From Azoarcus sp. (GTDB lineage: Bacteria; Pseudomonadota; Gammaproteobacteria; Burkholderiales; Rhodocyclaceae), in the NCBI GenBank assembly GCA_031258965.1, contig JAIRMC010000033.1, positions 982-64,981 of the forward strand: 64,000 bases of DNA, read 5' to 3'. A model generated the notes under the pieces. The model did no database searches. It was given only the letters and a program-made list of their open reading frames with translations, and was not told where the DNA came from. Shown here piece after piece: positions 87 through 19,960 of the stretch; the first letter of the stretch is position 1; every line of letters begins with the position of its first letter. The translations under genes and the position numbers were made by a program.

Positions 87-551
87 TCAGCGCGCGCCTG
101 TCGGGCGCTGGTAGGTATTGGCGATCAGGGGTCTGGCATCGACTTGCGGGACGTGGCATTGCAGGCAGAAGTAGCGCCGAGGCGAGACGTTGGGGAGTTC
201 CTGCCCGTCGGCGGCCTGGAAATGGCTTTGCGAAACTTTGGTGGCTTTTTCCTTGCGGTAGTTTTCCCAGGAATGGCAGTCCAGGCATTTGTTGAAGTTC
301 CGGGTAACGGGGTAATCGTCTACCGCGTGCGACACCAGGGGCGGCTGTTGCGTGAAGTCGCGGTCCAGCGGCGCGCTTTCGATGGCTTTCTTGAGCGCAT
401 CGCCGCCGCTGGAGGTGGATGTCGGGATGGGCGCGCCGCGCAGGGTGGCGAGGCCGCCGCTGTCGTCGTTGGCGGCGATGGATGTCGCACAGGAAAGCAG
501 CAGACCGGCCAGCATGGCAGCCGGGAAAGCGGTCAGGAGGCGGATTTTCAT
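87..551 (-). CDS. napB: Periplasmic nitrate reductase diheme cytochrome c subunit
   Basis: Signal peptide, two CxxCH motifs (CLDCH, CLQCH), typical PPLVSH and SPRRYFCLQCHVPQ motifs; nap context. Confidence 0.95.
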   Translation of the reverse strand: MKIRLLTAFPAAMLAGLLLSCATSIAANDDSGGLATLRGAPIPTSTSSGGDALKKAIESAPLDRDFTQQPPLVSHAVDDYPVTRNFNKCLDCHSWENYRKEKATKVSQSHFQAADGQELPNVSPRRYFCLQCHVPQVDARPLIANTYQRPTGAR

Positions 552-1423
552 GATGAACTCCTACGGTCGAAGCGGTGGGTGAACCTGAAGACCTTCTGGC
601 CGCAGATGTCGATGCAGCGGCCACAGGTCGTACAGAGGGCGTCGAGGATGACGGGACTTTCCTGCCCCGCTTTTTTGAGGGCGGGCCGGATGACGCGAGG
701 TTCGGGACAGACGGCGAAGCAGTCCATGCAGTCGTCGCAGGCGTCCCGCCTCGGAGCGGCCACGCGCGGGAGGGCGGTTTTGCCGATCAAGCTGTAGAAC
801 GCGCCCATCGGACAAAGATGCCCGCACCAGCCACGGCTGGCGACGAGCAGATCGTAGAAAAATACGGCGGCGAGAAACCATAGCCCCGCGCCCATGCCGA
901 AAAGCAGGCCGCGATGGGCGAGCGACACGGGGTTGACCCATTCCCATGCCAGCGCGCCGGTCGCGGCGGCGGCGGCGAGGGTGCCGGCCAGCAACCAATA
1001 GCGGGTGCGAGCGTCGGGGATGTGATTGGCTTTGACGGCAAGGCGGCGGCGCGTCCAGGCGGCGGCATCCGTGAGGATGTTGACCGGGCAAACCCAGGCG
1101 CAGAACACGCGCCCGCCGACAAGGAAGTAAAAAGCCGTCACGATGAGCGCGCCGGTGACAGCGGTGGCGGTGGGCATGAAGCCCGCCGCCAGCATTTGCA
1201 GCAACAAATAGGGGTCGGTGAGGGGCAGGATGTCGAGCGTGAGGCTGGAGGAAAGGTTGCCTTTGACGATCCAGACGCCGAACCACGGCCCGGCAAGGAA
1301 AAGACCGAGGATGCCCGCCTGGGAGATGCGGCGCAGCAACAGCCATTTGTGGGCCGCGAGCCAGCCTTTCCGGGCGATGGCGTCCTGTCCGGGCTGCGGG
1401 GCCGGGCGGCGGGCGGCGTTCAT
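548..1423 (-). CDS. napH: Quinol dehydrogenase membrane ferredoxin subunit
   Basis: [10 protein letters not shown] and RGWCGHLCP motifs, several TM segments, C-terminal CxxCxxCxxxCP and [11 protein letters not shown] clusters. Start placed at MNAARR (the ORF track starts 9 nt earlier). Confidence 0.93.
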
Positions 1424-2280
1424 GGCTTCCACCCGGAATCAATGCCGTCCAGGGCGGATCCGGCAGGGGGCGGGGGGGCGGTGTCGTCGACCCGCGAGTC
1501 GCCGTAAGGCTTGCCTTCCAGACCGCGCACGGGCAGTTCCAGTTGGTCGCCGATCAGGGAGCCGCCGTGTTTTTCCCGCTCTTCCCATCCCTTGCGGTAG
1601 TGCTCGCCGAGTTTGCCTTGCGCCAGCGGGGCAGGCAGTACCTTGATGGCCGCTTCGGCCAGCACGCAGGCGGCCTCGCATTTGCCGCAGCCGGTGCAAT
1701 GCGCCGAGTGTACGGTGGGCAACAGCATGGCGTGGCGATCCGAACGGACGTTGTGCTGTTTTTCCAAGGTGATGGCCTGGTCGATGACCGGGCAGACGCG
1801 ATAGCACACGTCGCAGCGCAGGCCAAGGAAGTTGAGGCAGGTTTCCTGGTCGATCAGCACGGCCAGCCCCATGCGGGCGTCGGCGATGTCGGTGAGGGCC
1901 GGGTCCAGCGCGCCTGTGGGGCACGGTTTGATGCAGGGAATGTCCTCGCACATTTCACAGGGAATGTTCCGGGCCGTGAAATAGGGTGTGCCGGTCGGGG
2001 CGGGGTCTCCCGGCGCGGCAAGTTTCAGGATGTCGTAGGGGCAGTCCCGCACGCACAGGCCGCAGCGCGTACAGGCGGCCAGGAACTGGTTTTCCGGCAG
2101 CGCGCCAGGGGGGCGCAGGGCCTGCGCGGCCAGCGCGCGGGACTGGGTAGCGTAAAGCCCCGCGCCCAGCGCCATGAGGCAGCCGCTCCCCGCCGCGCCC
2201 GCCAGCCCGGTCAGGAATCTGCGGCGCGCCGGAGAAGGATGGGTTTTCTCCGGCATGGCGGCAGGTTTTCCGGCGCTCAT
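1420..2280 (-). CDS. napG: Periplasmic ferredoxin (MauM/NapG family)
   Basis: Tat motif ARRRFL, LRPPGA motif and four 4Fe-4S Cys motifs. Confidence 0.95.
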
Positions 2281-2319
2281 TTTTCGGCGCTCCCAGGACG
2301 TTTCGTTACAGCAACGGAC

Positions 2320-4860
2320 TCAGGCCCGCACGACCTTGACGGCGCATTTCTTGAAGTCCGTTTCCTTGGAGAGCGGGCAGGTGGCATCCAGCGTGAGCTT
2401 GTTGACGAGCTTGGCTTCGTCGAAGAAGGGCACGAACACCAGCCCCCTGGGCGGTTTATTCCGGCCTTTCGTTTCGACCTGCAAGGTGATTTCGCCCCGG
2501 CGGGAGATGACTTTCACCTTCATGCCCCGTTGCAGCTTGCGCGCCTTGGCGTCGTCCGGATGCATGAACACGACCGCTTCCGGCACGGCGCGGTGCAGTT
2601 CGGGCACGCGCTGCGTCATGGAGCCGGTATGCCAGTGCTCCAGCACCCGGCCCGTGGACATCCACAGGTCGTATTCTTTGTCCGGCACTTCCACGGGCGG
2701 CTGGTAAGGCAGGGCGAAGATGACCGCCTTGCCGTCCTTGTGACCGTAGAACTTGACGCTTTCATTCTTGGCCACATAGGGGTCGTAGCCTTCGCGGAAG
2801 CGCCAGAGCGTTTCCTTGCCCTTGACGACCGGCCAGCGCAGGCCACGCGATTTGTGATAGGCGTCGAAATGCGCGAGGTCGTGATGGTGCTTCCTGCCAA
2901 AACCCGCGTATTCCTCGAACAGCCCTTTTTGCACGTAGAAACCAAAATGATCGGACTCGTCATTGGCGTAGTCCTTGATGGCGTGCGCATTGACCGTAGC
3001 GACTTCCGTCTTGGAGTATTTGGTGATGTCCTTGTTGGCGAAAAGCACGTCGTAGAGCGTCCTGCCCCGATACTCCGGCTTTTTGTCGACCAGCTCGGAA
3101 GGCCAGACCTCCTCGACCTTGAAGCGTTTGGCAAATTCCAAATATTGCCACAGGTCGGAACGGGCCTCGCCCGGCGCCTTGACCTGCTGGCGCCAGAACT
3201 GGGTGCGCCGTTCGGCATTGCCATACGCGCCTTCCTTTTCCGCCCACATGGCCGTGGGCAGGATCAGGTCGGCGGCCATGGCCGACACCGTGGGGTAGAC
3301 GTCGGAAACCACCACGAAGGCAGCGGGGTTGCGCCAGCCGGGGTAGATTTCATCGTTGATGTTCGGCCCAGCCTGCATGTTGTTGGTCGTGGACGTCCAG
3401 TAGCATTTCAGCTTGCCATCTTTCAGGGCGCGGCTTTGCGCCACGGCGTGCAGCCCCACCTTGGGGGGAATCGTGCCTTCGGGCAGTTGCCAGAGGGCTT
3501 CCGTCCGTTTCCGGTGTTCTGGATTGCCGACCACCATGTCGGCGGGCAGCCGGTGCGCGAAGGTGCCGACTTCCCGCGCCGTACCACAGGCGGACGGCTG
3601 GCCGGTAAGCGAGAAGGGGCCGCAGCCGGGTTTGGAAATCTTGCCGGTAAGCAGGTGCACGTTGTAGATCAGGTTGTTGACCCAGGTGCCGCGCGTGTGC
3701 TGGTTGACGCCCATCGTCCAGAAGGACACCACTTTCTTCGCCGGATCGGCGTACAACTCGGCCAGCCTTTTCAGGTTTTCGGCGGGCACGCCGGAGAGCG
3801 CGACGGTTTTCTCCAGGGTGTATTCGGAGACGAAGCTGGCGAATGCCTCGAAGCTGATGCCCTCGGCCTTGCCCGCGTCGCCCTTGGGCTTGCCATCCGG
3901 GCCGTCGTAGCCATTGCTGGTGGCCTTTTGCTCGACCGGGTTGTTCGGGCGCAGGCCATAGCCGATGTCGGTTGCGCCTTTCTTGAAGTTGACATGCTTG
4001 TTGACGAAGTGGGTGTCGACCTTCTTCGTCTGGATGATGTAGTTGCAGATGTAATTCAGGATCGCCAGATCGGTCTGCGGGTGGAAGATCATCGGGTTGT
4101 CGGCCAGCTCGAAGGAACGGTGCTCGAAGGTCGAGAGCACGTGGACTTCGCTTTTTTCATGCGTCAGGCGGCGATCGGTGACGCGCGACCAGAGTACCGG
4201 GTGCATTTCGGCCATGTTGGAACCCCAAAGCACGAAGGCGTCGGCGTTCTCGATGTCGTCGTAACAGCCCATCGGCTCGTCGATGCCGAACGTCCGCATG
4301 AAGCCGACCACGGCAGAGGCCATGCAGTGACGGGCATTCGGATCGAGATTGTTGGAGCGGAAGCCCGCCTTCATCAGCTTCGCGGCGGCGTAGCCTTCCC
4401 AGATCGTCCACTGCCCGGAGCCGAACATCGCAACGGAAGCCGGGCCGGAAGGAGACTTCAAGGCTTCCTTCCATTTTTCCGCCATGATGTCGAAAGCCTC
4501 GTTCCACGTGACGGGCGTGAACGCGCCTTCCTTGTCGTACTTGCCGTTTTTCTTGCGCAATAGCGGCTGTGTGAGGCGATCCTTGCCGTACATGATCTTG
4601 GACAGGAAATAGCCCTTGATACAGTTCAGGCCACGGTTTACCGGCGCGTCCGGGTCGCCCTGGGTAGCGACGAGCTTGCCGTTCTGCACCCCCGCCAGCA
4701 CCGAACAGCCGGTACCGCAGAAACGACAGGGGATTTTGTCCCATCGGATGACCTTGTCGGCGGCGGCGGGCGCGGCGGCCGCTGGAAGCGATATACCAGC
4801 GGTCGCGGCGGCCGCGGCAACTGCCTGGGTTTTCAGGAATTCACGACGATCCATGGACAT
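2320..4860 (-). CDS. napA: Periplasmic nitrate reductase catalytic molybdoprotein
   Basis: Start [10 protein letters not shown] (Tat signal) after a [17 protein letters not shown]...CIKG 4Fe-4S motif, NARHCMAS Mo-ligand motif, C-terminal DFKKCAVKV. Confidence 0.98.
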
Positions 4861-4861
4861 G

Positions 4862-5113
4862 TCAGGCCTCCTCGGGCGTAAGCATTTCATCTGAATATTC
4901 ATAGGAAAGGGTGACGGACATGAGGTGCGCCACCTGGTGGACTTGCAGGATAGAGTCGGAGACGGCATAACCGGGGCCGTCTTCCAGCAAGACGATCATT
5001 CGCCCGTCGCCGCTGTCGGCCGCGACGCTGGCGCCGGGCACTGCTTCCACCGCCTTTTTGACTTCGGCGGCGTGGCGGGGCGGAAACTTAAGCACGAGAC
5101 TGACGATTTTCAT
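4862..5113 (-). CDS. napD: NapA signal-peptide chaperone
   Basis: 83-aa protein (MKIVSLVL...GRMIVLLE...VTLSYEY) between napF and napA. True start at MKIVS, overlapping the napF stop. Confidence 0.88.
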
Positions 5114-5670
5114 GGGCGGTTTCCCGTCGAGGCGGCGGCGGCGGAAAGCCGTGAATCGCCCGTGCGCATGGAGATGGCCCGCGCCGGGCAGACCGCCACG
5201 CATTCGCCGCAGCCCGTGCATAGCGAGGCATCGACATCCGGCTGTGCCGGGCGGCCCGGACGCGGGGGAAAACGGATGGCGCCGACTTCGCAATGCTCAC
5301 CGCAGCTTCGACAGAGTACGCCCTGCCGAGGCAGGCAGGCCGCGCCGACGACGGCCACGAGCGGCCAGGGCGGGAGATCGGGGGAGAAACGCAGGGCGGG
5401 CGGGCGGCGGGCGGCGGTCTTGTGCGCCGCCATCGTACAGGCGCGGGCGCAATCCGCACAAAACGTACAGTGCCCCCGCGAGAAATCGGCCTCGGGAAAG
5501 CCCCCCGCGCCCTGCACGAGCAAACCCTTGGGACAGGCCGCGATGCAATCGCCGCAACGCTCGCAGGCTCGATGAAATACCGCCTCACTCACCGCCCAGG
5601 GCGGACGATATGGCGCTTCGAGCCGATACGGACGCTGGCCGAGCAAAAAGGCTCTGCGGCCAATATCCAT
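5110..5670 (-). CDS. napF: Ferredoxin-type protein
   Basis: RPPWA motif, CERCGDCIAACP, CTFCADC, CRSCGEHC, CTGCGECVAVCP; first gene of the nap operon. Confidence 0.92.
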   Translation of the reverse strand: MDIGRRAFLLGQRPYRLEAPYRPPWAVSEAVFHRACERCGDCIAACPKGLLVQGAGGFPEADFSRGHCTFCADCARACTMAAHKTAARRPPALRFSPDLPPWPLVAVVGAACLPRQGVLCRSCGEHCEVGAIRFPPRPGRPAQPDVDASLCTGCGECVAVCPARAISMRTGDSRLSAAAASTGNRP

Positions 5671-5985
5671 TATCCCTCCTGTCCGCTAATTTCGTGACAT
5701 GTTAATCGAAGCGCGATTTAGCGGCAACCGCCGAGGTAAGGATTTCTTATTGCCTGTTTTTATGGTGTTCCGGAACGACGGCGAACGTAGTGGCGTCCAT
5801 TGTCTTGAAGATGCTTATCTTGAACATACCGACTATCCAGTCTCATGACCGGGGCGCGGCGATATTTCATCCGGCGCGATGTTCTCGACGAATAGCGGTA
5901 CGTTTATTCTTTGTCCAGCTATTGCAGGACTTCGCCGCGATGGGAATTTCCGTGGCTATATAGCGCATCGCTGCCAAGAAATGCC

Positions 5986-6453
5986 TCAGGCCGTACGCTG
6001 GATGTCGACGACGACGGATGCCCGGTACTGTTTCCACTTCACGAGAATGACGTAAGAATGAGGCGAGACGACGGAGTTCAGCCAGTCGTGCTCGGTGACT
6101 TGCGTGACCGGCACCGAAATCTGCATGGCTTCCCCGAAGTGCTTGCGCGCGTTGCCGGAAATGGTATTGGCAATTTCGCCGACTGCGTCCAGCAGGCGAT
6201 CATCGTCGCGCTCCAGCTCGTGCATGGCGAGCAAAAGATGCGCGACCATGACGCGGGGGGCCGAAAAGTAGACGCGACCGGAAAAATCCCCGGAAAGCGT
6301 GATGTAGCTGGTCAGGTCGAACGTGGAAGCCTGGATTTCGCCTTCCACCAGATAAGCAGCCCGGATTTCCACCTTTTCGTTGGTGGTATGGAAAAAGAAG
6401 GAACCGACCGCATCCACGAAACTGCGAATATCGTTGTCGTTTATGCTTTTCAT
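5986..6453 (-). CDS. CheX-like phosphatase
   Basis: 155 aa with GEIANTISGN (ExxN CheC/CheX catalytic motif) and the ISVP strand; overlaps the receiver gene by 4 nt. Confidence 0.85.
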   Translation of the reverse strand: MKSINDNDIRSFVDAVGSFFFHTTNEKVEIRAAYLVEGEIQASTFDLTSYITLSGDFSGRVYFSAPRVMVAHLLLAMHELERDDDRLLDAVGEIANTISGNARKHFGEAMQISVPVTQVTEHDWLNSVVSPHSYVILVKWKQYRASVVVDIQRTA

Positions 6454-6830
6454 GAATTTGTAAGCTCCAGGAAGGCCGCTATCAATTCTTCGTCGGTAAA
6501 CGGCTTGTAAAGAAAGCCCTTTGCCCCTTTTTTAAGGGTTTTCAGGGCGGTGGCTTTGTCACTCAACGCGGAAATGACGAGGATGCTGCACTCCGGGCGC
6601 AGACTGATCATCTTCTCCGTGCAGTCGACGCCGTCCATTTCCGGCATGGTGATGTCCATCGTCACGATGTCCGGAGCCTGTTGCAGATAGAGCGTGATGG
6701 CTTCCACGCCGTTGCGGGCCATGCCGACCACGTTGATGTAGTTCAGTCGCGGATCGTTCAGGATGCGGGCGATACGGCTTCGGATAATCGCGGAGTCATC
6801 CACGATGAGGAGTTTCATATTTGTTTTCAT
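6450..6830 (-). CDS. Stand-alone CheY-like response regulator receiver
   Basis: LIVDDS, DIVTMDITMPEMDG (phospho-Asp), ISA and YKPF motifs; no output domain. Confidence 0.92.
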   Translation of the reverse strand: MKTNMKLLIVDDSAIIRSRIARILNDPRLNYINVVGMARNGVEAITLYLQQAPDIVTMDITMPEMDGVDCTEKMISLRPECSILVISALSDKATALKTLKKGAKGFLYKPFTDEELIAAFLELTNS

Positions 6831-8992
6831 CTCGCTGCGCTGAATTGGACGTGGAATTCTGTAAACATGCTCGGACTGCTCCTGACCCGCATGCGGCCAT
6901 GGATGGCCTTGACTTTTTCCATCACGGCGTCCAGTCCGACGCCATGTCCTGCATCCTTGTCCGCCACCGCCGCAGAGGATACACCCGGCTGGAAGATGAG
7001 TTTCGCAATTTCCGTATCGCTCAGCGCCGCCGCTTCCGTCATGCTCAAGCGACCGCTTTTCACCAGGCTGTTGCGCAGGCGTTCGGGCACGATGCCGCGC
7101 CCGTCGTCTCGCACGCTAAAGTCATAATCGCCATTGCCCAGGTATTTGCACCAGATGCACAGGGCGCCTATTTTTGGCTTGTTGTGGGCGACCCTTTCCT
7201 CCGGTATCTCGATGCCATGCGTCAGGGCATTGCGCACGAGCTGTATGGAAATGCCCTGTAATTCCTGGGTCACGTCCGGGGGCAGGGAGGAGAAGCCCTC
7301 GAGTTGGCAGGAGATTTCGATCTGCTTGCCGTGATCCGCGGCGATTCGCTGCGCCAGCGAGGTGATGTGGCCGACGAACGGATGCTGTGCCGGTTCCGCT
7401 GGCGTCAGGGTCTGCAAGACACTGTTTGTGTTTTCCGCGTACTTGTCGTCTTTCGCGCCATCCATGGGCGGCGGTTCCGCCTTTTTCATGCCCAGCGCGT
7501 CGGCGAGGCGCGTGACGATCGCGGCGAGCGAAGAATAGCGTTCGTAGAATCCTTCCAGCAACACGGCGATGCGCAATATCTGGTCGCCGCTCACGCCGTG
7601 GCCGCTTTCGCGCATGGCGACCAGTTCCTGTTCGCTCTCGTGCGCGTAATTTTCCAGGACATCGATGCCGAGCACCGCCGCTTCGCCCTTGATACCGTGG
7701 ATGATGCGCATGATGTAGTTTAGGGTGTGCAGGCGGGCGCGCTCGTCCTCCTGCGGCTGGCTCAGCTTTTCGTTGATTTGCGACAGGGATTGTCCTGTGT
7801 TGTCAATGAACTGCTGGAGCGAGGCGAAGTCGCTCCCCGCCAGGCGCAGCAGGGCCTCGATCTCGATCTTCGTCTTGCTCTTGGCTTGTTCGAGCTGCTG
7901 CATCAGCAGCACCTTGTCGGTCACGTCCTGTACCGTCACCAGCACATGGGAAATCGTGCCGTCCACAAGCGCGCGGTTGAAGAAAAAGGACAGGTAGCGG
8001 TTCTGGACAGTGCCGAATTTGTCCACCATGTTGACCGGCACATTGGTCAGCGGGTTGAGGCTGGTCACGAGAGACTCTTTCACCCGCTCGCCAAGCAGCA
8101 ATTCGATGTAATCCATCGCGGACTCGTAGATTTCCGGCGAAACCATGCTTTGAAGGATGGGCATGAAATCCATGCCAGGCTTGATTTCCCTGTGCAACAT
8201 TCTGGGCAGGGATTCCGAGAATTGCGTTCCCAGTTTTTTGTCTTTGCTTAAAAGAAACAACCCTTCGTGCACGGTGGCGAGGATTTCGACATTTTCGTTC
8301 CGCGATTCGGCCAGTTTCCTGTCGCCGCTCATCAGGTCGCGGATGGAAACAATGACAGTATACGTAAAATTCATGAACGCAATGACGAAACCCACGATCA
8401 GCACCATCCGGAGCATGTTCGCCCGTTTATTGGCGACGACCTCCAGATCGGTGGTCAAATCGTTCATCAGGCGCAGGACTTCCAAATTATTGTTCTGGGC
8501 ATAGGCAACCGCTTCTTCAAGCTGCGCGGCATTGTAATGTCGGCTGTTTTTCAGTAGCGGCTGTAATAGATCGAAATATCGGTCCCATATCGTGTAGGCA
8601 TCCGCCACAAGCTGGCGGGATATTTCCGTTTCGACCTGGGTCAGGAAAGCCGGTTTGCCGTCGCCGCCCGTCACCATGTCGCCATCGCGGAACCCTTTGA
8701 GGGTGGTGTTGAAAAGATTGACGGTCAGATCCAGCTCTTTCAGGTTGCGGACAATGCCCTCCTCGTCCTGCGCTTCCGTGCTGCGCTGTAGCAGCAACAA
8801 TACTTTGGTCATGCGCTGCGACAACATCCGTTGGCGTCCCGACAAATTGATCGAGACCGCGGATTCGTCCGCCTTGTAAGTGTTGTAGAAGTTGATGCCA
8901 ATTACTACCGAATCCGCAACAACAAACAGGATCACGGCGAGGATGATTTTGCGATATCTTGCAAAAATGCTTTGTCCGCTGTTCTTATCCAT
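6827..8992 (-). CDS. Membrane sensor kinase: periplasmic PilJ/NarX-type domain, PAS-like region, Hpt and CheA-type HATPase
   Basis: TM1 (IILAVILFVVADSVVIG), INLSGRQRMLSQRMTK motif, TM2, Hpt IIHGIKGEAAVLG, and CheA-like QLVRNALTHGIE, VRDDGRGI, IFQPGVSS, GHGVGLDAV boxes. No CheW domain at the C-terminus. Start placed at MDKNSG. Confidence 0.85.
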   Translation of the reverse strand: MDKNSGQSIFARYRKIILAVILFVVADSVVIGINFYNTYKADESAVSINLSGRQRMLSQRMTKVLLLLQRSTEAQDEEGIVRNLKELDLTVNLFNTTLKGFRDGDMVTGGDGKPAFLTQVETEISRQLVADAYTIWDRYFDLLQPLLKNSRHYNAAQLEEAVAYAQNNNLEVLRLMNDLTTDLEVVANKRANMLRMVLIVGFVIAFMNFTYTVIVSIRDLMSGDRKLAESRNENVEILATVHEGLFLLSKDKKLGTQFSESLPRMLHREIKPGMDFMPILQSMVSPEIYESAMDYIELLLGERVKESLVTSLNPLTNVPVNMVDKFGTVQNRYLSFFFNRALVDGTISHVLVTVQDVTDKVLLMQQLEQAKSKTKIEIEALLRLAGSDFASLQQFIDNTGQSLSQINEKLSQPQEDERARLHTLNYIMRIIHGIKGEAAVLGIDVLENYAHESEQELVAMRESGHGVSGDQILRIAVLLEGFYERYSSLAAIVTRLADALGMKKAEPPPMDGAKDDKYAENTNSVLQTLTPAEPAQHPFVGHITSLAQRIAADHGKQIEISCQLEGFSSLPPDVTQELQGISIQLVRNALTHGIEIPEERVAHNKPKIGALCIWCKYLGNGDYDFSVRDDGRGIVPERLRNSLVKSGRLSMTEAAALSDTEIAKLIFQPGVSSAAVADKDAGHGVGLDAVMEKVKAIHGRMRVRSSPSMFTEFHVQFSAAR

Positions 8993-9300
8993 GGAAAGCT
9001 CACGCGCGAAAAATTTGCCACTTATACGGAAACCGGCCAAAACAGCTTGCTCGGGGAAGGTCCGGTAATTTTAGTGTACGGGCAACTGTCGGAACGGAAG
9101 AAAATTGTACTGGTCGTTAAATTTACAGTGTATTGATTTGCCGTTCCCCCGAACCTGCGCGAATTCTCCCAACCAGGACAAACCTGACCAAGCGACTTCG
9201 CTCTTGGTAGCGCACTCGCCAGTCCGTGCCCTGCTTCGATGCCTGCCAGCCAGCCTTCCCGAGGCGCGCCGTTTCGCGCCGCCAAGGGCCGCGCGACGGT

Positions 9301-11874
9301 TCAAAGCTGGAGCCGCTCAAGCAGTTCGCGTTCGATCCTGATGGCGCGCGCTTCCTGCGCCAGCGCCCCACCCGTGAGGAGAAAGGTATCCTCCGCGCGT
9401 TCGCCCAGGGTGCTGATCCGGGCCGTTGCAACGTTGATGTCGTGGCGGGCCAATATTTCGGCGACGTCGAACAGCAGGCCGGGACGGTCGGCGGCGATGA
9501 TCGACAGGATATGGTGACGGCCCGCTTCATCGGCGCGCAGGCTGATTTCCGGCGTGATGGGGAAATGCTTCACTTGGCGTGAGAGCCGCCCCGGCGGCGG
9601 GCGCACGATTTTATCCGTGCGCAGCACGGCGCCGAGGTCGTGTTCTATTAAAGAGACGATGTCGCGGTAGTTATCCTCGTCGCCGGTATTTTGCAGGATG
9701 AAACTGTCCAGCGCGTAGCCGTGGCGGGTGGTGTGTACCTTGGCTTCGAGGATGGAAAAGCCCATGCGGCTGAAAAACCCGGTCAAGCACACGAACAGGT
9801 TCTTCTGGTCGGGGGCGTAGACCATCACTTGCATGCCCATGCCCATGCCCTCGTCCGGCAGGCGGGCCTTGACGACGGGTTCGGCGGCGTTGGACTGGAA
9901 GTAGAGTATCCGGGCGTGCCAGGCGATTTCGTCGGAGGAGTGGCGCATGAAATAAACAGCGTCGAGCTGTTCCCAGAGCGCGTCTTCGACGCCGGGGCGC
10001 AAACCATGATAGCGCAGGAGTTGCCGTGCGCGGTCGATGCGGCCGTCCTGGCGCAGCGCCTGTTGCGGGGTCGCGCCGCGCAACAGGCGCTGCGTGGCGA
10101 AAAAAAGGTCTTCCAGCAACTTGCCCTTCCAGCCATTCCACACTTTGGGGCTGGTGCCGCGGATATCGGCGTGGGTGAGGAGGTAGAGCGCCGCGAGCCG
10201 CCGTTCGTTGCCCACGGCGGCGGCGAATCGCTGGATGGTTTGCGGATCGCTGGTGTCTTCCTTTTGCGCGACCTGCGACATGGTGAGGTGGTGGCGCACC
10301 AGCCAGACGACGAGATCCGTATCCTGGGGTTCCAGACTGTGGGTTTCACAGAATTCTCGCGCGTCGGCCATGCCCAGGATTGAATGGTCGCCGCCGCGCC
10401 CCTTGGCGATGTCGTGGAAAAGCACGGCGATATAGAGCAGCCAGTGACGCTCGAAACCGAGGATCAACCGCGACATCAGCGGGTATTCGTGGGCATGTTC
10501 GCCCATCGTGAAGCGGCGCATGTTGCGCAATACCATGAGAGTGTGTTGATCCACGGTATAGGCATGGAACAGGTCGTACTGCATCTGGCAGAGGATCTTG
10601 CGCCAGGGCGGCAGGTAGCGGGAGAGGATGCCGTTCTGGTTCATCCAGCGGAAAGCATGCACGATGCCGCGTTTTTGCTGGAGGATCGCCAGGAATGTGG
10701 CGCGATTGATGGGGTCGGCCCGGAAGGCGGCGTTGACGCGAATCCGGTTCACCCAGAGCGCGCGCAGGGTGCGGGCGGTCATGGATTTGAGTTCGGAGCG
10801 TTGTTGCAACAGCAGGAAACATTCGAGCATCGCCGGGGGATAGCGCTCGAAAACCGTGTCCTCGCGAATGTCGAGCAACTCTCGCACGGCCTGGAAGCGA
10901 TCATTGATGATGATGGCGGGCGGGCGGGCGGGCAGGATCTCGCTGCCGTAGTTCAGGAGCAGGATGCCGTTGATCTGGGTGAGTTTCTTGGCCGTCAGAT
11001 AATAATGCTGCATCAGGATTTCAGCGGCGCGCTTGGCGGCGTTGGCATTGATGCCCATGGCACGGGCAAGGCGTTCCTGGTAGTCGAACAGAAGCCTGTC
11101 TTCGGTGCGGCCCGTGAGATAGTGCAGACCGATGCGTACATGTTGCAGGAAACGTTCGCAGCCGCGCAGGTCGCTGGCTTCGTTGCCGGTGATGAGGCGC
11201 CGGCGCGCCAGTTCACGCCAATTGTGGCCCAGCCCAGCGGCGCGGGCGATCCAGCCAAGCAATTGCAAATCGCGCAATCCGCCGGGGCTTTCCTTGCAAT
11301 TGGGTTCCAGTGCGTAAGGCGTATCGTCGTAGCGGGCATAGCGTTGCTCGCGTTCGAGGAGTTTGGCGCGGAAAAACGCCTGCACGTCGAGCTGTTCGCG
11401 GTAGCGCCGGATGAAGCGGCTATAGAGCGGGGCATCGCCGGCGAGCAAGCGCGCTTCGAGCAGATTGGTCTGCACGGTGATATCGGCCTGCGCCGCCTCC
11501 AGGCATTCGTCGAGAGTGCGCACGCTGTGACCGACGACCAGTCCGATGTCCCAAAGCGCGCTGACGAAGACCGACAGTTTCGCGCCTAGTTCATCGTCGG
11601 GCGGCGCGGGCAGGAGGATCAGCAGATCGACGTCGGAACAGGGGAACAGCTCGCCGCGCCCGTAGCCGCCGACGGCGGCCAGCGCCGCGCGGGCCGGGAT
11701 GCCGCAGTCCTCCCACAACCGGACGATGGCGGCGTCGACCAGCGCCGCGCGCCCATGCAACAAGGGGGTAGTCAGCGGGCGCGCTTCGTATGCGACGCGC
11801 AGGGCGGCGCGACCCGCCTCGACCTGGCCGCGCACGGCGGCGATGCTTTCTTGCAGGCGGGCGGCATCGCTCAT
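9301..11874 (-). CDS. glnD: PII uridylyltransferase/uridylyl-removing enzyme
   Basis: AVGGYGRGELFPCSDVDLLIL nucleotidyltransferase motif, CKESPGGLRD, HD domain (TVDQH...FHDIAKG) and two ACT domains; follows map as usual. Confidence 0.97.
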   Translation of the reverse strand: MSDAARLQESIAAVRGQVEAGRAALRVAYEARPLTTPLLHGRAALVDAAIVRLWEDCGIPARAALAAVGGYGRGELFPCSDVDLLILLPAPPDDELGAKLSVFVSALWDIGLVVGHSVRTLDECLEAAQADITVQTNLLEARLLAGDAPLYSRFIRRYREQLDVQAFFRAKLLEREQRYARYDDTPYALEPNCKESPGGLRDLQLLGWIARAAGLGHNWRELARRRLITGNEASDLRGCERFLQHVRIGLHYLTGRTEDRLLFDYQERLARAMGINANAAKRAAEILMQHYYLTAKKLTQINGILLLNYGSEILPARPPAIIINDRFQAVRELLDIREDTVFERYPPAMLECFLLLQQRSELKSMTARTLRALWVNRIRVNAAFRADPINRATFLAILQQKRGIVHAFRWMNQNGILSRYLPPWRKILCQMQYDLFHAYTVDQHTLMVLRNMRRFTMGEHAHEYPLMSRLILGFERHWLLYIAVLFHDIAKGRGGDHSILGMADAREFCETHSLEPQDTDLVVWLVRHHLTMSQVAQKEDTSDPQTIQRFAAAVGNERRLAALYLLTHADIRGTSPKVWNGWKGKLLEDLFFATQRLLRGATPQQALRQDGRIDRARQLLRYHGLRPGVEDALWEQLDAVYFMRHSSDEIAWHARILYFQSNAAEPVVKARLPDEGMGMGMQVMVYAPDQKNLFVCLTGFFSRMGFSILEAKVHTTRHGYALDSFILQNTGDEDNYRDIVSLIEHDLGAVLRTDKIVRPPPGRLSRQVKHFPITPEISLRADEAGRHHILSIIAADRPGLLFDVAEILARHDINVATARISTLGERAEDTFLLTGGALAQEARAIRIERELLERLQL

Positions 11875-11887
11875 AGGGGGAAGCCCT

Positions 11888-12751
11888 CTACGAAAGAGGC
11901 GCTGGGGGCAGCGCGGCGACGGCGGCGTTCGTGGCCGAGACAAGCGGACCGTCGATCAACTTGGGCGGCGGCGGGCAGCCCGCGGAGAGGGACAACACCT
12001 CCACGCCGTCCTCCGTGACGAGCACTGTATGCTCCCATTGCGCCGACAGGCTGCGATCCTTGGTGACAATCGTCCAGCCGTCGGAGAGTTCGGAGATCGC
12101 GGCCTTGCCCGCGTTGATCATCGGCTCGATGGTGAAGATCATGCCGGGACGCAATTCGCTGCCGCCGCCCCGCTGGCCATAGTGCAGCACCTGCGGTTCC
12201 TCGTGAAAGCGGCGTCCGATGCCATGCCCGCAGAACTCCCGCACAACCGAAAAACTATTACCTTCGGCATGGCGCTGGATAATGTGGCCGATATCTCCCA
12301 AATGCGCGCCGGGTCGCACGGCAGCGATGCCCAGCCACATGCATTCGTAAGTAACCTGGCACAGCCGTTTGGCGAGAATACTGGCGTTGCCGATGATGAA
12401 CATGCGGCTGGTATCGCCGTAAAACCCTTGCGGCGTGACGACGGTAACGTCGATATTGAGAATGTCGCCTTTCTTCAGCGACTTGGGGCCGGGAATGCCA
12501 TGGCATATCTGGTGGTTGAGCGACGTGCAGACCGAAGCCGGATAGGGCGGGTAGCCGGGCGGCGCGTAGTTGAGCGTTGCCGAGGTAGTGTGCTGCACGT
12601 TTACCATGTAGTCGCTGCACAGACGGTCAATCTCGGCGGTCGAAATACCGGGCTTGACGAAGGGCGCTATGTAATCAAGCACTTCTGCCGCAAGACGGCA
12701 GGCGGTGCGCATCTCTCGGATTTCTTCGGGGGTTTTCAGGGCAATACTCAT
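11888..12751 (-). CDS. map: Methionine aminopeptidase type I
   Basis: ICHGIP, DVTV, GDTSRMF, FCGHGIG, FTIEP and QWEHT motifs. Start at MSIALKT. Confidence 0.97.
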   Translation of the reverse strand: MSIALKTPEEIREMRTACRLAAEVLDYIAPFVKPGISTAEIDRLCSDYMVNVQHTTSATLNYAPPGYPPYPASVCTSLNHQICHGIPGPKSLKKGDILNIDVTVVTPQGFYGDTSRMFIIGNASILAKRLCQVTYECMWLGIAAVRPGAHLGDIGHIIQRHAEGNSFSVVREFCGHGIGRRFHEEPQVLHYGQRGGGSELRPGMIFTIEPMINAGKAAISELSDGWTIVTKDRSLSAQWEHTVLVTEDGVEVLSLSAGCPPPPKLIDGPLVSATNAAVAALPPAPLS

Positions 12752-12874
12752 CGTGGCGTGCTCGCGGCCAAAAATATGCAGACTAACGCATACCGCCCGG
12801 ACGGGCAAATGGCGTGGACTTTCGGGGAGCAGAATCAGCCCGCGGGCGCTCGCCCAACGTATATGACTGGAATC

Positions 12875-17581: not shown

Positions 17582-19960
17582 GGACGCGCTCCGCCGCCAC
17601 GACCTTCACTTGCAGGCATCCTTCCGCGGCATTGGCACGTGCATCAACCTGCCGCACGCCTTCCTGCCGACGAACGACGTCTTCGACCTCGCGCAAATCG
17701 ACCGTAGCGCCGACGAGGGTGGCGGGCCATACACGACGCTCGAAACGCCGTGGGTCGCATTGGCCTTCAGTGAGTTTCCACAGCCCATCTCGCCCCATCA
17801 AATCCGGGCACATCGCCACGGCATGCAAGACCGAGCGGAAATCCTCGAACATGGTCTGCGCCGCGCCATCGGCCAGCACTTCGTCCATGCAATACCAACT
17901 GAATACAAGCTCACCGTCGATTTCCATGACCTGGTGATCCAGCCAGACCTGCGGCGTCTGCGTGAACACATGCACGGGATCGCCCAGCAGACGGGTCATC
18001 GCCTGATCGATCGCCATGCCATCCAGTGTCATACCCAGCATGCTGGTGAACACGACTGGCATCAGTGGCTGGCGGGACTGCCCGCGGATATGACCAATCT
18101 CTCGCAGCAGTTCCACCCCGTTCACCTGACTGTTCGCCAGGTGTTGCCACAAGCGCTGCTGTGTCTGCTCAATGGACTGGCGCAAGGTGCGGGATGGATC
18201 GCCCAGTTCAAAGTCGACCAACAGCACCGAGGTGAAGTCACCGATCAACTGGCGTATTTGCGGATGAACCGGGCGTCGGTTGAAGAATGTCAGGTTCAGC
18301 GTAAAGGCCGGCCAGCGTGCCCAACGTTCCAGCACCCAGGCGAACAGCGTCATCAGGGCTGCCGAAGGCGTTACACCCCAGGACTGCCACTCGCGCTTGA
18401 GCCGAGTCCAGCGCTCGCGTTCCAGTACCGCTTGGTGGGTGGTGAAATGCGGCTGCACGCCTGTTTGCCGGCATCCGGACAGCGGCAATCTGGGCGCAGG
18501 CGGCAAGTCCGCCAGGCGTTCCTGCCAATAGCACCAGGCTTTCAGCCATGCCGGTTCCAGGCGGTGCGCCTGCTCATCGAGCACATAATCGCGGAACGTA
18601 ATCTGTAGCGGCGCCAAGGCCTCGCCCCGGTAGAGGGCGGCCATGTCGTCCATCATGACCTTGAAGCTCTGCACATCGAACAGCAACAGATCCAGATTCA
18701 TGTGCAGCCGGTAGCGACCGTCTCCCAGTTCGCTGGCAATCAACTCGAACAGCGGCCAGCGGTCTGTAGGCGGGACACGGTAAGACAATTCCTGCCGAGT
18801 CTTGTCCAATATTCGCTCGCGCTCATTGGCCGGCAGGGCTGACAGGTTGCACTGCCTGATCCGGTAATCCTCTACCTTGGCCAGAATGCGCTGTTGTCCG
18901 TCCTCGCCAATCACCATGCGCAGCATGTCGTGCCGCTTCACCAAGGCGTTCCAGGCTCGCTCGAAACGATTCAGGTCGAACTGCTCATGGCGTAGATCCC
19001 ACTCGAACAGTACATGGCAGGCCACGCCGCCATAGTCGATCAGAGGCGTTCGACCCACCCAATAAGCATGCTGAATCGGGGTTAGCGGGAATGGTTGGTA
19101 GCGTCCCTTTGCATCGTGCGACAACATCAGGGGTTGCGGCGATTGGTTCGTAATCTGGGCCGCCTGCGTCACAATAAGGCGGCTCAGGCCGTCGATGCTC
19201 AAGTCTTTATAGGCTTTGCCCGCGTCGATACGAACACCAAGGCGGCGCTGGATCGTGCTGCTCAGTTCCAGGAACAGCAGCGAATCCAGGCCCAACTGCA
19301 CCAGGTCACGCCTTGGCGACAAACGGGCCGGATCGTCCAAGCGCAATTGCGCGGCAATCTGTGCCGTCAGCCATTGCGCCACGGCATCGACATTGCCCAG
19401 CTTGTCAGGCGACAGATCAGTCACCGCCGGGCCATGCTGCGCTTCGGTTGGCGATGTCGCAGTAGCTGAAGACGTCACGGCAGAGTGAAGGGGTGGCAGT
19501 GGCTTCAAGCCCAGCAAGCGGCCGCGGGCGGCATCCAGGCGCTCGGGCAGTACCCGCATCGCCAGGCGATAGGGGGCCGCGCGCGAAACCGCCTGTTCCA
19601 GATGCCACAGTCCTTCGGCGTCGCTCAACACGCCCATGCCATCTTCAGCGAGGCGCTCCCGCAAGTCGGCATTCGCGGCCCGCCCAGTCTCACCCCAAGC
19701 GCCCCAGCCGATGGCAACCACGGTTACTGCCTTCCGGCCACCATCCGCCGTTGCAGCCTGATACGCTAGACCGTCCAAATAGGCGCTTGCCAGCGCATGG
19801 GCCGCTTGTCCCGCACTGCCCAGCGCCGCGGCCGCCGAGGAATAGAGCAACAAATAAGAATGCGCGTCAGCTTCGAGCAGTCGCTCATAAGTCCGCCAGG
19901 CCGCATGTGCCTTGACGGCGAGCACCGGCGCTAGCCGATTGCCGTCCAGCGCCGTGACGA
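17505..19960 (-). pseudogene. HMWP1-like PKS/NRPS fragment 3: C-terminal half of KR, ACP and cyclization (Cy) domain, then truncated
   Basis: LAPVLAVK...YSSAAAALGSAGQAAH (KR), LGLDSLLF (ACP Ser), TPIQHAYWVGR and DLLLFDVQSF (Cy DxxxxD). Stops about 75 aa after the Cy domain without MT, PCP or TE. Confidence 0.85.

Follow-up and report, generated by a model that had tools for sequence, protein, structure and literature searches.

The window analysed here is a stretch of 64,000 nucleotides from an Azoarcus sp. genome assembly (GCA_031258965.1, contig JAIRMC010000033.1), and its positions 5986-8992 carry three genes on the minus strand, which encode a sensor kinase, a CheY-like receiver and a CheX phosphatase. 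The locus is interpreted as a phosphorelay of the class III histidine kinase (HKIII) type that probably responds to nitrate in the periplasm, a reading to which a probability of roughly 55% is assigned. It is a new member of the HKIII class with a candidate ligand, while the architecture itself is not new. To our knowledge, only genome comparisons have so far been used to define HKIIIs, and we know of no signal or target for any of them. A nitrate box of the type found in the chemoreceptor McpN, together with a placement in nitrate gene clusters, could give the class its first ligand. It also raises the question of how a ligand bound at a dimer interface switches a kinase that lacks a dimerization domain.

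HKIIIs were reportedly described by Adebali, Petukh, Reznik, Tishkov, Upadhyay and Zhulin in the Journal of Bacteriology in 2017 (199:e00218-17), on the basis of genome comparison. These kinases reportedly possess their own sensory domains, lack a dimerization domain and are accompanied by a single-domain response regulator and CheX. They are also said to be often associated with a soluble chemoreceptor, to be present in genomes without chemotaxis genes and to co-occur universally with pilT. Modulation of type IV pilus motility was reportedly proposed from this gene co-occurrence, and no ligand is said to have been named. The locus was filed as HKIII because it shows each of these features that could be tested. 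It combines its own sensory domain with a CheA-type Hpt and ATPase core, has no dimerization or CheW domain, lies beside genes for a single-domain receiver and CheX, and belongs to a family of Beta- and Gammaproteobacteria. PilT (TIGR01420, above cut-off) is encoded in 26 of 26 carrier genomes, and some carriers have no flagellar genes. In contrast to this description, no soluble methyl-accepting chemotaxis protein (MCP) is encoded beside the locus, and a probable nitrate ligand and the frequent placement with nitrate assimilation or nap genes are added here. Because the structure of McpN is from 2018-2019, the nitrate reading is probably younger than the description of 2017. A previous reading of the window, made from the sequence alone (the sequence-only reading), had named an already functionally characterised architecture as a counter-argument. 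The architecture is not new and corresponds to HKIII; literature searches found no experimental study of it.

The periplasmic sensor and its N-box

The kinase gene is located at 6827..8992 on the minus strand and encodes a protein of 721 amino acids. Two transmembrane helices, TM1 at about residues 13-35 and TM2 at about residues 196-218, flank the periplasmic sensor (residues 36-195; 8408..8887, minus strand), which was predicted to form a four-helix bundle in an AlphaFold domain model with a predicted local distance difference test score (pLDDT) of 94.5. The Pfam domain PilJ was found at residues 54-126 (E=3.8e-10). An alignment to the structure of the McpN ligand-binding domain (LBD), 6GCV, located an N-box-like motif, INLSGRQRMLSQ, at residues 48-59 (8816..8851, minus strand); the sequence-only reading had picked out a longer motif, INLSGRQRMLSQRMTK, at residues 48-63. 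The N-box of McpN follows the pattern [IVL]-[ND]-x-A-G-x-Q-R-M-L-[ST]-Q (PMC6381276), and the motif of the window, I-N-L-S-G-R-Q-R-M-L-S-Q, agrees with it at 11 of 12 positions, the single mismatch being an exchange of Ala to Ser. Arg55 aligns with Arg61 of McpN, which binds nitrate. The nitrate contacts listed for McpN are G58, A59, R61 and M62 (PMC6381276), and according to our own mapping of the 6GCV alignment, the mismatch corresponds to Ala57 and thus lies outside these contacts.

When the sensor sequence alone was compared with the PDB, 6GCV was the best match via the motif, with a marginal E-value of 0.48. A profile built from 53 sensor sequences matched the McpN-LBD over its full length (E=6.6e-9), followed by the ligand-binding domain of PilJ, and a Foldseek search with the sensor model had 6GCV at the top and NarQ sensor fragments lower in the list. 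Judged from the profile and the fold model, the sensor is homologous to the ligand-binding domain of McpN, and periplasmic nitrate, a well supported candidate by sequence and analogy, is probably its ligand. The likeness to a nitrate-binding sensor, which the previous reading had proposed from the motif, is thereby strengthened by the conserved Arg, the full-length profile match and the top fold match.

McpN (PA2788) of Pseudomonas aeruginosa shares with the kinase a PilJ four-helix bundle with an N-box (6GCV; PMC6381276). McpN is, however, a methyl-accepting chemoreceptor that signals via CheW and CheA, whereas the sensor of the window is fused to a kinase core and has no MCP signalling domain. 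Two residues of the motif differ between the proteins: Ala57 of McpN is replaced by Ser, and Ala59, one of the contact residues, by Arg53, an additional Arg that is invariant in the kinase family. Because of the latter replacement, the ligand specificity could differ, with nitrite or another oxyanion as possible ligands.

Among 79 relatives, the exact N-box pattern is present in about 36, and the motif is kept in about 70. It is absent in some divergent members (Lysobacter, Nevskia, Steroidobacteraceae) and degenerate in Motilimonas and Uliginosibacterium. A second variant, GRQRYVSQR[IV]AR, replaces GRQRMLSQRMTK in the loci L009, L011, L025, L026, L028, L031-L035, L039, L042, L043 and L069. 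It is mainly found in nas-linked kinases of the Ramlibacter and Polaromonas type, and the other variant occurs in some Polaromonas loci; the two motif variants could mean different ligand specificities.

Kinase core, receiver and CheX

A full-length AlphaFold2 model of the kinase was built with 74 homologues and has a mean pLDDT of 86. In this model, TM1 is followed by the periplasmic bundle, which contains a small beta-hairpin, and by TM2 as part of a long helix (residues 155-230). A poorly predicted linker (residues 227-240) leads to a PAS-like alpha/beta domain (residues 241-356; 7925..8272, minus strand). The assignment of this domain is based on the beta-alpha-beta fold of the model alone; no Pfam PAS match was obtained, and the domain contains the conserved blocks EILxTVxEGLFLL and ISHLLVTVQDVT. 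The Hpt bundle (residues 389-499; 7496..7828, minus strand) is supported by the Pfam Hpt match (residues 408-489, E=1.7e-8) and a weak alignment to CheA P1; in the model, the helical bundle spans residues 358-499. It carries the predicted phospho-accepting His432 in the motif HGIKGEAA (codon at 7697-7699), and H432, K435 and G436 are invariant in 74 kinase sequences. The C-terminal domain (residues 538-718; 6839..7381, minus strand) is a CheA P4-type ATP-binding domain, which matches CheA P4 structures in the PDB with E~1e-23 and the Pfam domain HATPase_c at residues 600-734 (E=3.5e-10). In a Foldseek comparison with CheA P4, the template modelling score was 0.83 and the root mean square deviation 2.7 Å. 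Residues of the ATPase N box (N588), the G1 box (D629, G631, G633) and the G2 box (G682, G684, G686) are invariant in 74 sequences, and D630 is conserved in at least 90% of them.

The ATPase domain forms the very C-terminus of the protein, which thus lacks a P5/CheW domain. Indeed, no CheW, H-kinase_dim, HisKA or HAMP match was found in the kinase in Pfam searches at E<=0.01. Only a disordered linker (residues 511-531) lies between the last Hpt helix, which extends to residue 499, and the P4 domain, which starts at residue 538; it therefore leaves no room for the two-helix hairpin of a P3 domain. This structural argument carries weight because P3 domains are often missed by hidden Markov models (PMC10782961). 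On the evidence of the profiles and the model, the kinase has no P3 dimerization domain, no P5/CheW domain, no HAMP domain and no dimerization and histidine phosphotransfer (DHp) domain. Each element that the sequence-only reading had described, namely a sensor between two transmembrane helices, a PAS-like domain, Hpt and a CheA-type ATPase without CheW, was recovered in its place by Pfam and AlphaFold; the PilJ, Hpt and HATPase_c matches, which a Pfam scan had been expected to return, all score above their gathering scores.

The receiver gene (6450..6830, minus strand) encodes a single-domain protein of 126 amino acids with a Response_reg domain at residues 8-119 (E=2e-26, above gathering score), and its best NCBIfam matches are the CheB receiver and CheY. 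The residues D11, D12, D59, S87, F106 and K109 were identified, and a comparison of 78 sequences showed the acidic pocket, Asp59, Ser87 and Lys109 to be conserved. In the window's own genome, the receiver is most similar to three receiver domains encoded on contig C11, with which it shares 30-32% identity and which are read from their positions as the ChpA receiver, PilG and PilH; a match on contig C131, taken as the flagellar CheY, is 28% identical (E=6e-4). The third gene (5986..6453, minus strand) encodes a CheX-family phosphatase of 155 amino acids, in which the CheX domain covers residues 48-117 (E=4.5e-17, above gathering score). Its active-site motif D89-x3-E93-x2-N96, which is of the CheC/CheX type D/S-x3-E-x2-N, is conserved in 75 sequences. 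Since the key residues are conserved across the homologues, kinase, receiver and CheX look catalytically competent.

Both gene junctions consist of 4-nucleotide (nt) ATGA overlaps, in which the stop codon of the kinase gene overlaps the start codon of the receiver gene and the stop codon of the receiver gene overlaps the start codon of cheX. Together with the Response_reg and CheX matches, these overlaps agree with the translational coupling that had been proposed for the three genes. The open reading frame of the kinase could also start further upstream (6827-9040, minus strand, 737 amino acids); however, position 8992 is the most likely start, because a protein of 721 amino acids with 100% identity is on record (P0001). 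The previous description of a self-contained set of receptor-kinase, CheY and CheX stands as well: the module contains no MCP, no CheW, no methylation components and no DNA-binding output.

CheA-CheY-CheX pathways with CheX of the Thermotoga/Borrelia type have in common with the module an Hpt domain with an H-x-x-K-G motif, a P4-type ATPase, a CheY-like receiver and a CheX with a D-x3-E-x2-N motif. The four core domains of CheA are Hpt, H-kinase_dim, HATPase_c and CheW, and H-kinase_dim and CheW were present in 100% of the surveyed CheA homologues (PMC10782961). The kinase of the window lacks both and carries its own transmembrane sensor instead; it is therefore not a CheA. NarX and NarQ also possess a periplasmic four-helix sensor with an Arg box in helix 1 and two transmembrane helices (PMC8199190), and NarQ was among the fold matches of the sensor. 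In contrast to the window's locus, they contain HAMP, S-helix, GAF-like, DHp (HisKA_3) and catalytic and ATP-binding (CA) domains and act together with the DNA-binding regulators NarL and NarP. In the absence of HAMP and DHp domains and of a NarL-type partner, the locus does not encode a NarX/NarQ kinase. A survey of about 6000 nitrate-sensing kinases from 2021 did not cover the architecture described here because only DHp-type architectures were pooled (PMC8199190).

Nitrate context, output and competing readings

More than 550 homologues of the kinase contain the same three Pfam domains, and all of them have generic names only. When one genome per species was scanned, at least 545 loci that encode the kinase were confirmed in Beta- and Gammaproteobacteria, and the best 80 of these were examined. 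The gene order kinase-receiver-cheX is kept in about 74-76 of the 80 loci; most exceptions are loci in which the contig breaks off shortly behind the kinase gene. Nitrate genes were counted with strict markers, after ModC and other ATP-binding cassette (ABC) ATPases had been removed from the NrtD cluster, and were found near the module in 27 of the 80 loci and in 18 of the 47 loci that are flanked by 5 kb or more on either side. This frequency should be far above chance because a stretch of 20 kb is well under 1% of the genomes. The homologues are thus far from randomly placed relative to nitrate genes; a random placement had been named in the sequence-only reading as a possible counter-argument. 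Its claim of a link to nap was only partly upheld: 24 of the 27 nitrate-linked loci carry nrtABD, nasT, narK, nirB or nasA, which constitute the family-wide link, and only 3 carry nap.

The typical gene order is nasT-nrtA-nrtB-nrtD-kinase-receiver-cheX-narK-(Ser/Thr kinase/phosphatase)-nirB-nasA, and the models for nitrate ABC transporters, TIGR01183 and TIGR01184, gave scores above cut-off. Three arrangements can be distinguished. The module lies between nrtABD and narK, nirB and nasA in Comamonadaceae and Sphaerotilaceae; between nasT with a hypothetical gene and nrtABD in the closely related loci L083 and L016 (labelled Thiobacillus); and upstream of napFDA in the clade of the window. In a maximum-likelihood tree, the nas-linked loci mainly belong to one Comamonadaceae/Sphaerotilaceae clade, with scattered others that are labelled Methylotenera, Thiobacillus and Burkholderiaceae. 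The nap-linked loci (the window, L073, L002 and L005) are only found within a clade of eight Azoarcus-labelled metagenome-assembled genomes (MAGs), which has 100% support. In the window, the periplasmic nitrate reductase operon napFDAGHB (87..5670, minus strand) starts 315 nt behind the stop codon of cheX, in agreement with the co-orientation about 310 bp upstream of napF that had been reported before. In this lineage, the module has ended up beside napFDAGHB.

The assembly of the window's own genome comprises 2.7 Mb and is 93.7% complete. Two PilJ-domain proteins were found in it, the kinase of the module and a chemoreceptor on contig C11, which is read as PilJ of the Pil-Chp system; the module kinase is the only N-box-type sensor that was found, and no NarX-type sensor was detected in this genome. 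By tblastn, NapA is its only NapA/NasA-like gene product, and Nap is the only nitrate reductase found. With one N-box-type nitrate sensor and one nitrate reductase found in the genome, the module is the best candidate for nitrate perception in this organism. Searches of the genome with tblastn gave no match for NasT (with queries from related loci), NrtA, NarK, NasA or NirB. FliM, PilT and two other CheA-like kinases are encoded in the genome.

The proposed mechanism starts from a kinase with two transmembrane helices, whose periplasmic four-helix bundle would be a McpN-type PilJ domain. By analogy to McpN and NarX, one nitrate ion would be bound at the interface of two sensor domains via Arg55. 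The ligand would change the packing of the dimer, and this change would be passed on via TM2 to the PAS-like domain, thereby altering the phosphorylation of His432 by the P4-type ATPase. The phosphoryl group would then be transferred from His432 to Asp59 of the co-translated receiver, and its removal by CheX would reset the signal. As DHp and P3 domains are lacking, dimerization must come from the sensor, the transmembrane or the PAS-like parts. CheA-type kinases have no phosphatase activity of their own, and the kinase of the module, which has no DHp domain, should likewise be devoid of a built-in phosphatase activity. For this reason, the presence of CheX cannot decide between a role in motility and a role in metabolism.

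The receiver has no output or effector domain and must therefore act by binding another protein. By our estimates, the chance that this target belongs to the motility machinery is a little under one half, direct control of nitrate uptake or reduction accounts for somewhat less than a third, and something else for about a quarter. Type IV pili are the best family-wide motility candidate, and the flagellar motor is possible in this flagellated organism. FliM is encoded in 17 of 25 carrier genomes as well as in that of the window, but is missing in the other 8, which include the isolates Ramlibacter sp. WS9, Ramlibacter sp. Leaf400 and Caenimonas sedimenti. The kinases of these three isolates keep an N-box variant and are encoded within nas clusters. 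The flagellar motor is thus not the general target, and flagellar taxis as a general output, as the sequence-only reading had considered, has to be abandoned. The placement in nas clusters fits both a control of nitrate uptake and assimilation and a nitrate-foraging behaviour that is co-expressed with assimilation genes.

Several points weigh against a nitrate-responsive HKIII. The motif of the window departs from the strict N-box at one position (Ala to Ser), and the family-invariant Arg53 stands where McpN has the contact residue Ala59. PilJ of P. aeruginosa also contains PilJ domains, but does not bind nitrate (PMC6381276). Roughly one in two of the well-flanked loci, among them every Cellvibrionaceae locus, keeps the motif although nitrate genes are missing from its neighbourhood; in the Cellvibrionaceae and other gammaproteobacterial members, no neighbours are conserved, and the loci without nitrate genes share no further conserved neighbour beyond the three-gene set. 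The co-occurrence with PilT says little because PilT is nearly universal in these taxa. Finally, the assignment to HKIII depends on what a single paper from 2017 reportedly describes.

The rival that survives best, though it is unlikely, is that the module acts as a metabolic controller, in which the phosphorylated receiver gates NrtABD or NarK, modulates a NasT-type antiterminator or, in the window's organism, tunes the activity or expression of Nap. In about 24 loci and at least three arrangements, the three genes are part of nas clusters and share their orientation, in most cases with 130-200 nt separating them from the preceding nrtD. Furthermore, nasT is located directly upstream of nrtA in at least 15 loci, and no NasS-like gene was detected beside nasT; some loci contain a second ANTAR gene, and one a second NrtA-like gene. 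In Bradyrhizobium, nap and nos are reported to be under the control of NasT (PMC6759348). The NasS-NasT system resembles the module in sensing nitrate or nitrite for assimilation, and nasT often neighbours the three genes; however, NasS is a cytoplasmic NrtA-like protein that sequesters NasT without phosphorylation (PMC3795266), and the window's genome yielded neither nasT nor nasS. The move of the module beside nap, the only nitrate reductase found there, would suit a metabolic role, and CheX, as argued above, is no pointer to motility. Against this stands that, according to tblastn, the window's genome has none of the proposed partners NasT, NrtA and NarK, nor NasA and NirB. NasT-type receivers lack the canonical Lys and the acidic pair, according to our own reading of locus L033, which makes their direct phosphorylation unlikely. 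In half of the loci, nitrate genes are missing from the neighbourhood, and the nap genes of L002 and L005 have an FNR-like box of their own. Moreover, nitrate foraging would result in the same co-location with nas genes, and McpN-mediated nitrate chemotaxis is itself reported to be repressed by an abundance of the chemoeffector (PMC6381276). In its strictest form, which we regard as rather unlikely, the module would be the nitrate sensor of nitrate-utilisation clusters and no motility device, would gate transport or act as a partner of NasT-type antiterminators without an adjacent NasS, and would control Nap in the window's organism. If true, the core of a chemotaxis kinase would have been rewired for metabolic control.

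It is quite improbable that the PilJ-type bundle recognizes neither nitrate nor nitrite but another ligand or a protein partner, and that the nitrate neighbourhood reflects co-regulation only. Arg53 and the Ala to Ser exchange, which set the family apart from McpN, would fit this proposal, as would the PilJ domains of P. aeruginosa PilJ, the Cellvibrionaceae members without nitrate context and the members of Lysobacter, Nevskia and Steroidobacteraceae without the motif. P. aeruginosa PilJ, however, has no N-box, whereas the kinase family keeps it almost perfectly; in addition, the best match in both sequence and fold is the nitrate-bound McpN-LBD, and the independent associations with nrt/nas and nap genes in different lineages are hard to explain otherwise. 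A strictly flagellar nitrate taxis, with the receiver binding FliM and CheX setting the time constant, would agree with the origin of every part from chemotaxis proteins, with FliM in the window's genome and with an aromatic residue at the Tyr106 switch position of the receiver (F106; own reading), but it is very unlikely given the carriers without FliM, among them the isolates with N-box-variant kinases in nas clusters, and a receiver that is closer to Pil-Chp receivers than to the presumed flagellar CheY.

Neighbouring genes and minor observations

The genes of the nap operon are all encoded on the minus strand. napF (5110-5670), whose product matches NapF TIGR00402 above cut-off, napD (4862-5113) and napA (2320-4860) were identified by Pfam/NCBIfam matches. 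The remaining genes were assigned by our own reading of the translations: napG (1420-2280) by a signal-peptide-like N-terminus and Cys clusters, napH (548-1432) as a membrane protein and napB (87-551) by two CxxCH motifs. An open reading frame of 1006 amino acids on the plus strand (1543-4563), antisense to napA and napG, looks spurious, of the type found in GC-rich DNA, and is not regarded as a gene. Upstream of the kinase gene and on the same strand lie glnD (PII uridylyltransferase, 9301-11943) and map (11888-12808), both named from our own reading of the translations; a spacer of 308 nt separates glnD from the kinase gene.

The spacer between cheX and napF (5671..5985, minus strand) extends from the CheX stop at 5986 to the napF start at 5670, and neither a terminator-like nor a sigma-70-like site was found on its minus strand. 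The same applies to the minus strand of the region upstream of the kinase gene and of the napF leader, and no match to the sigma-54 pattern TGG-N8-TTGC was found near either of them. An FNR-like box (TTGAC/TTAAC-N4-ATCAA) is located about 70 nt upstream of napF in both nap copies of L002 (L002:13150-13200 and L002:18010-18060) and in L005 (L005:6730-6780). It could not be recognised in the spacer of the window or in L073, the closest relative of the window; the leaders of these two differ from the others and are longer.

The closest relatives that carry the module also have small genomes of 2.6-2.7 Mb. In L005, moeB and modC (L005:880-3222), which function in molybdopterin synthesis and molybdate uptake, lie directly upstream of the kinase gene and fit the molybdoenzyme Nap. 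The upstream gene of this locus (and probably that of L006) had been considered as nrtD; this was rejected, as the gene is modC beside moeB. L002 (L002:12530-21415) appears to carry two nap copies in tandem, in the order kinase-receiver-cheX-napF'(partial)-napD-napA, followed by a cheX fragment of 56 amino acids (17684-17851) and another napF-napD-napA. The cheX-nap junction seems to have been duplicated as a unit, but the tandem copies may also be an artefact of the MAG assembly.

In L083 (9493-9963) and L084 (4261-4731), a protein of 156 amino acids without a Pfam match is encoded between nasT and the kinase gene. About 11 of the nitrate assimilation clusters that carry the module, among them L025, L026, L028, L031, L037, L040, L042 and L043, contain a gene for a fused PP2C phosphatase/Ser-Thr kinase of about 590-615 amino acids, which usually lies between narK and nirB in the opposite orientation, at a distance of about 2-5 kb downstream from the kinase gene.

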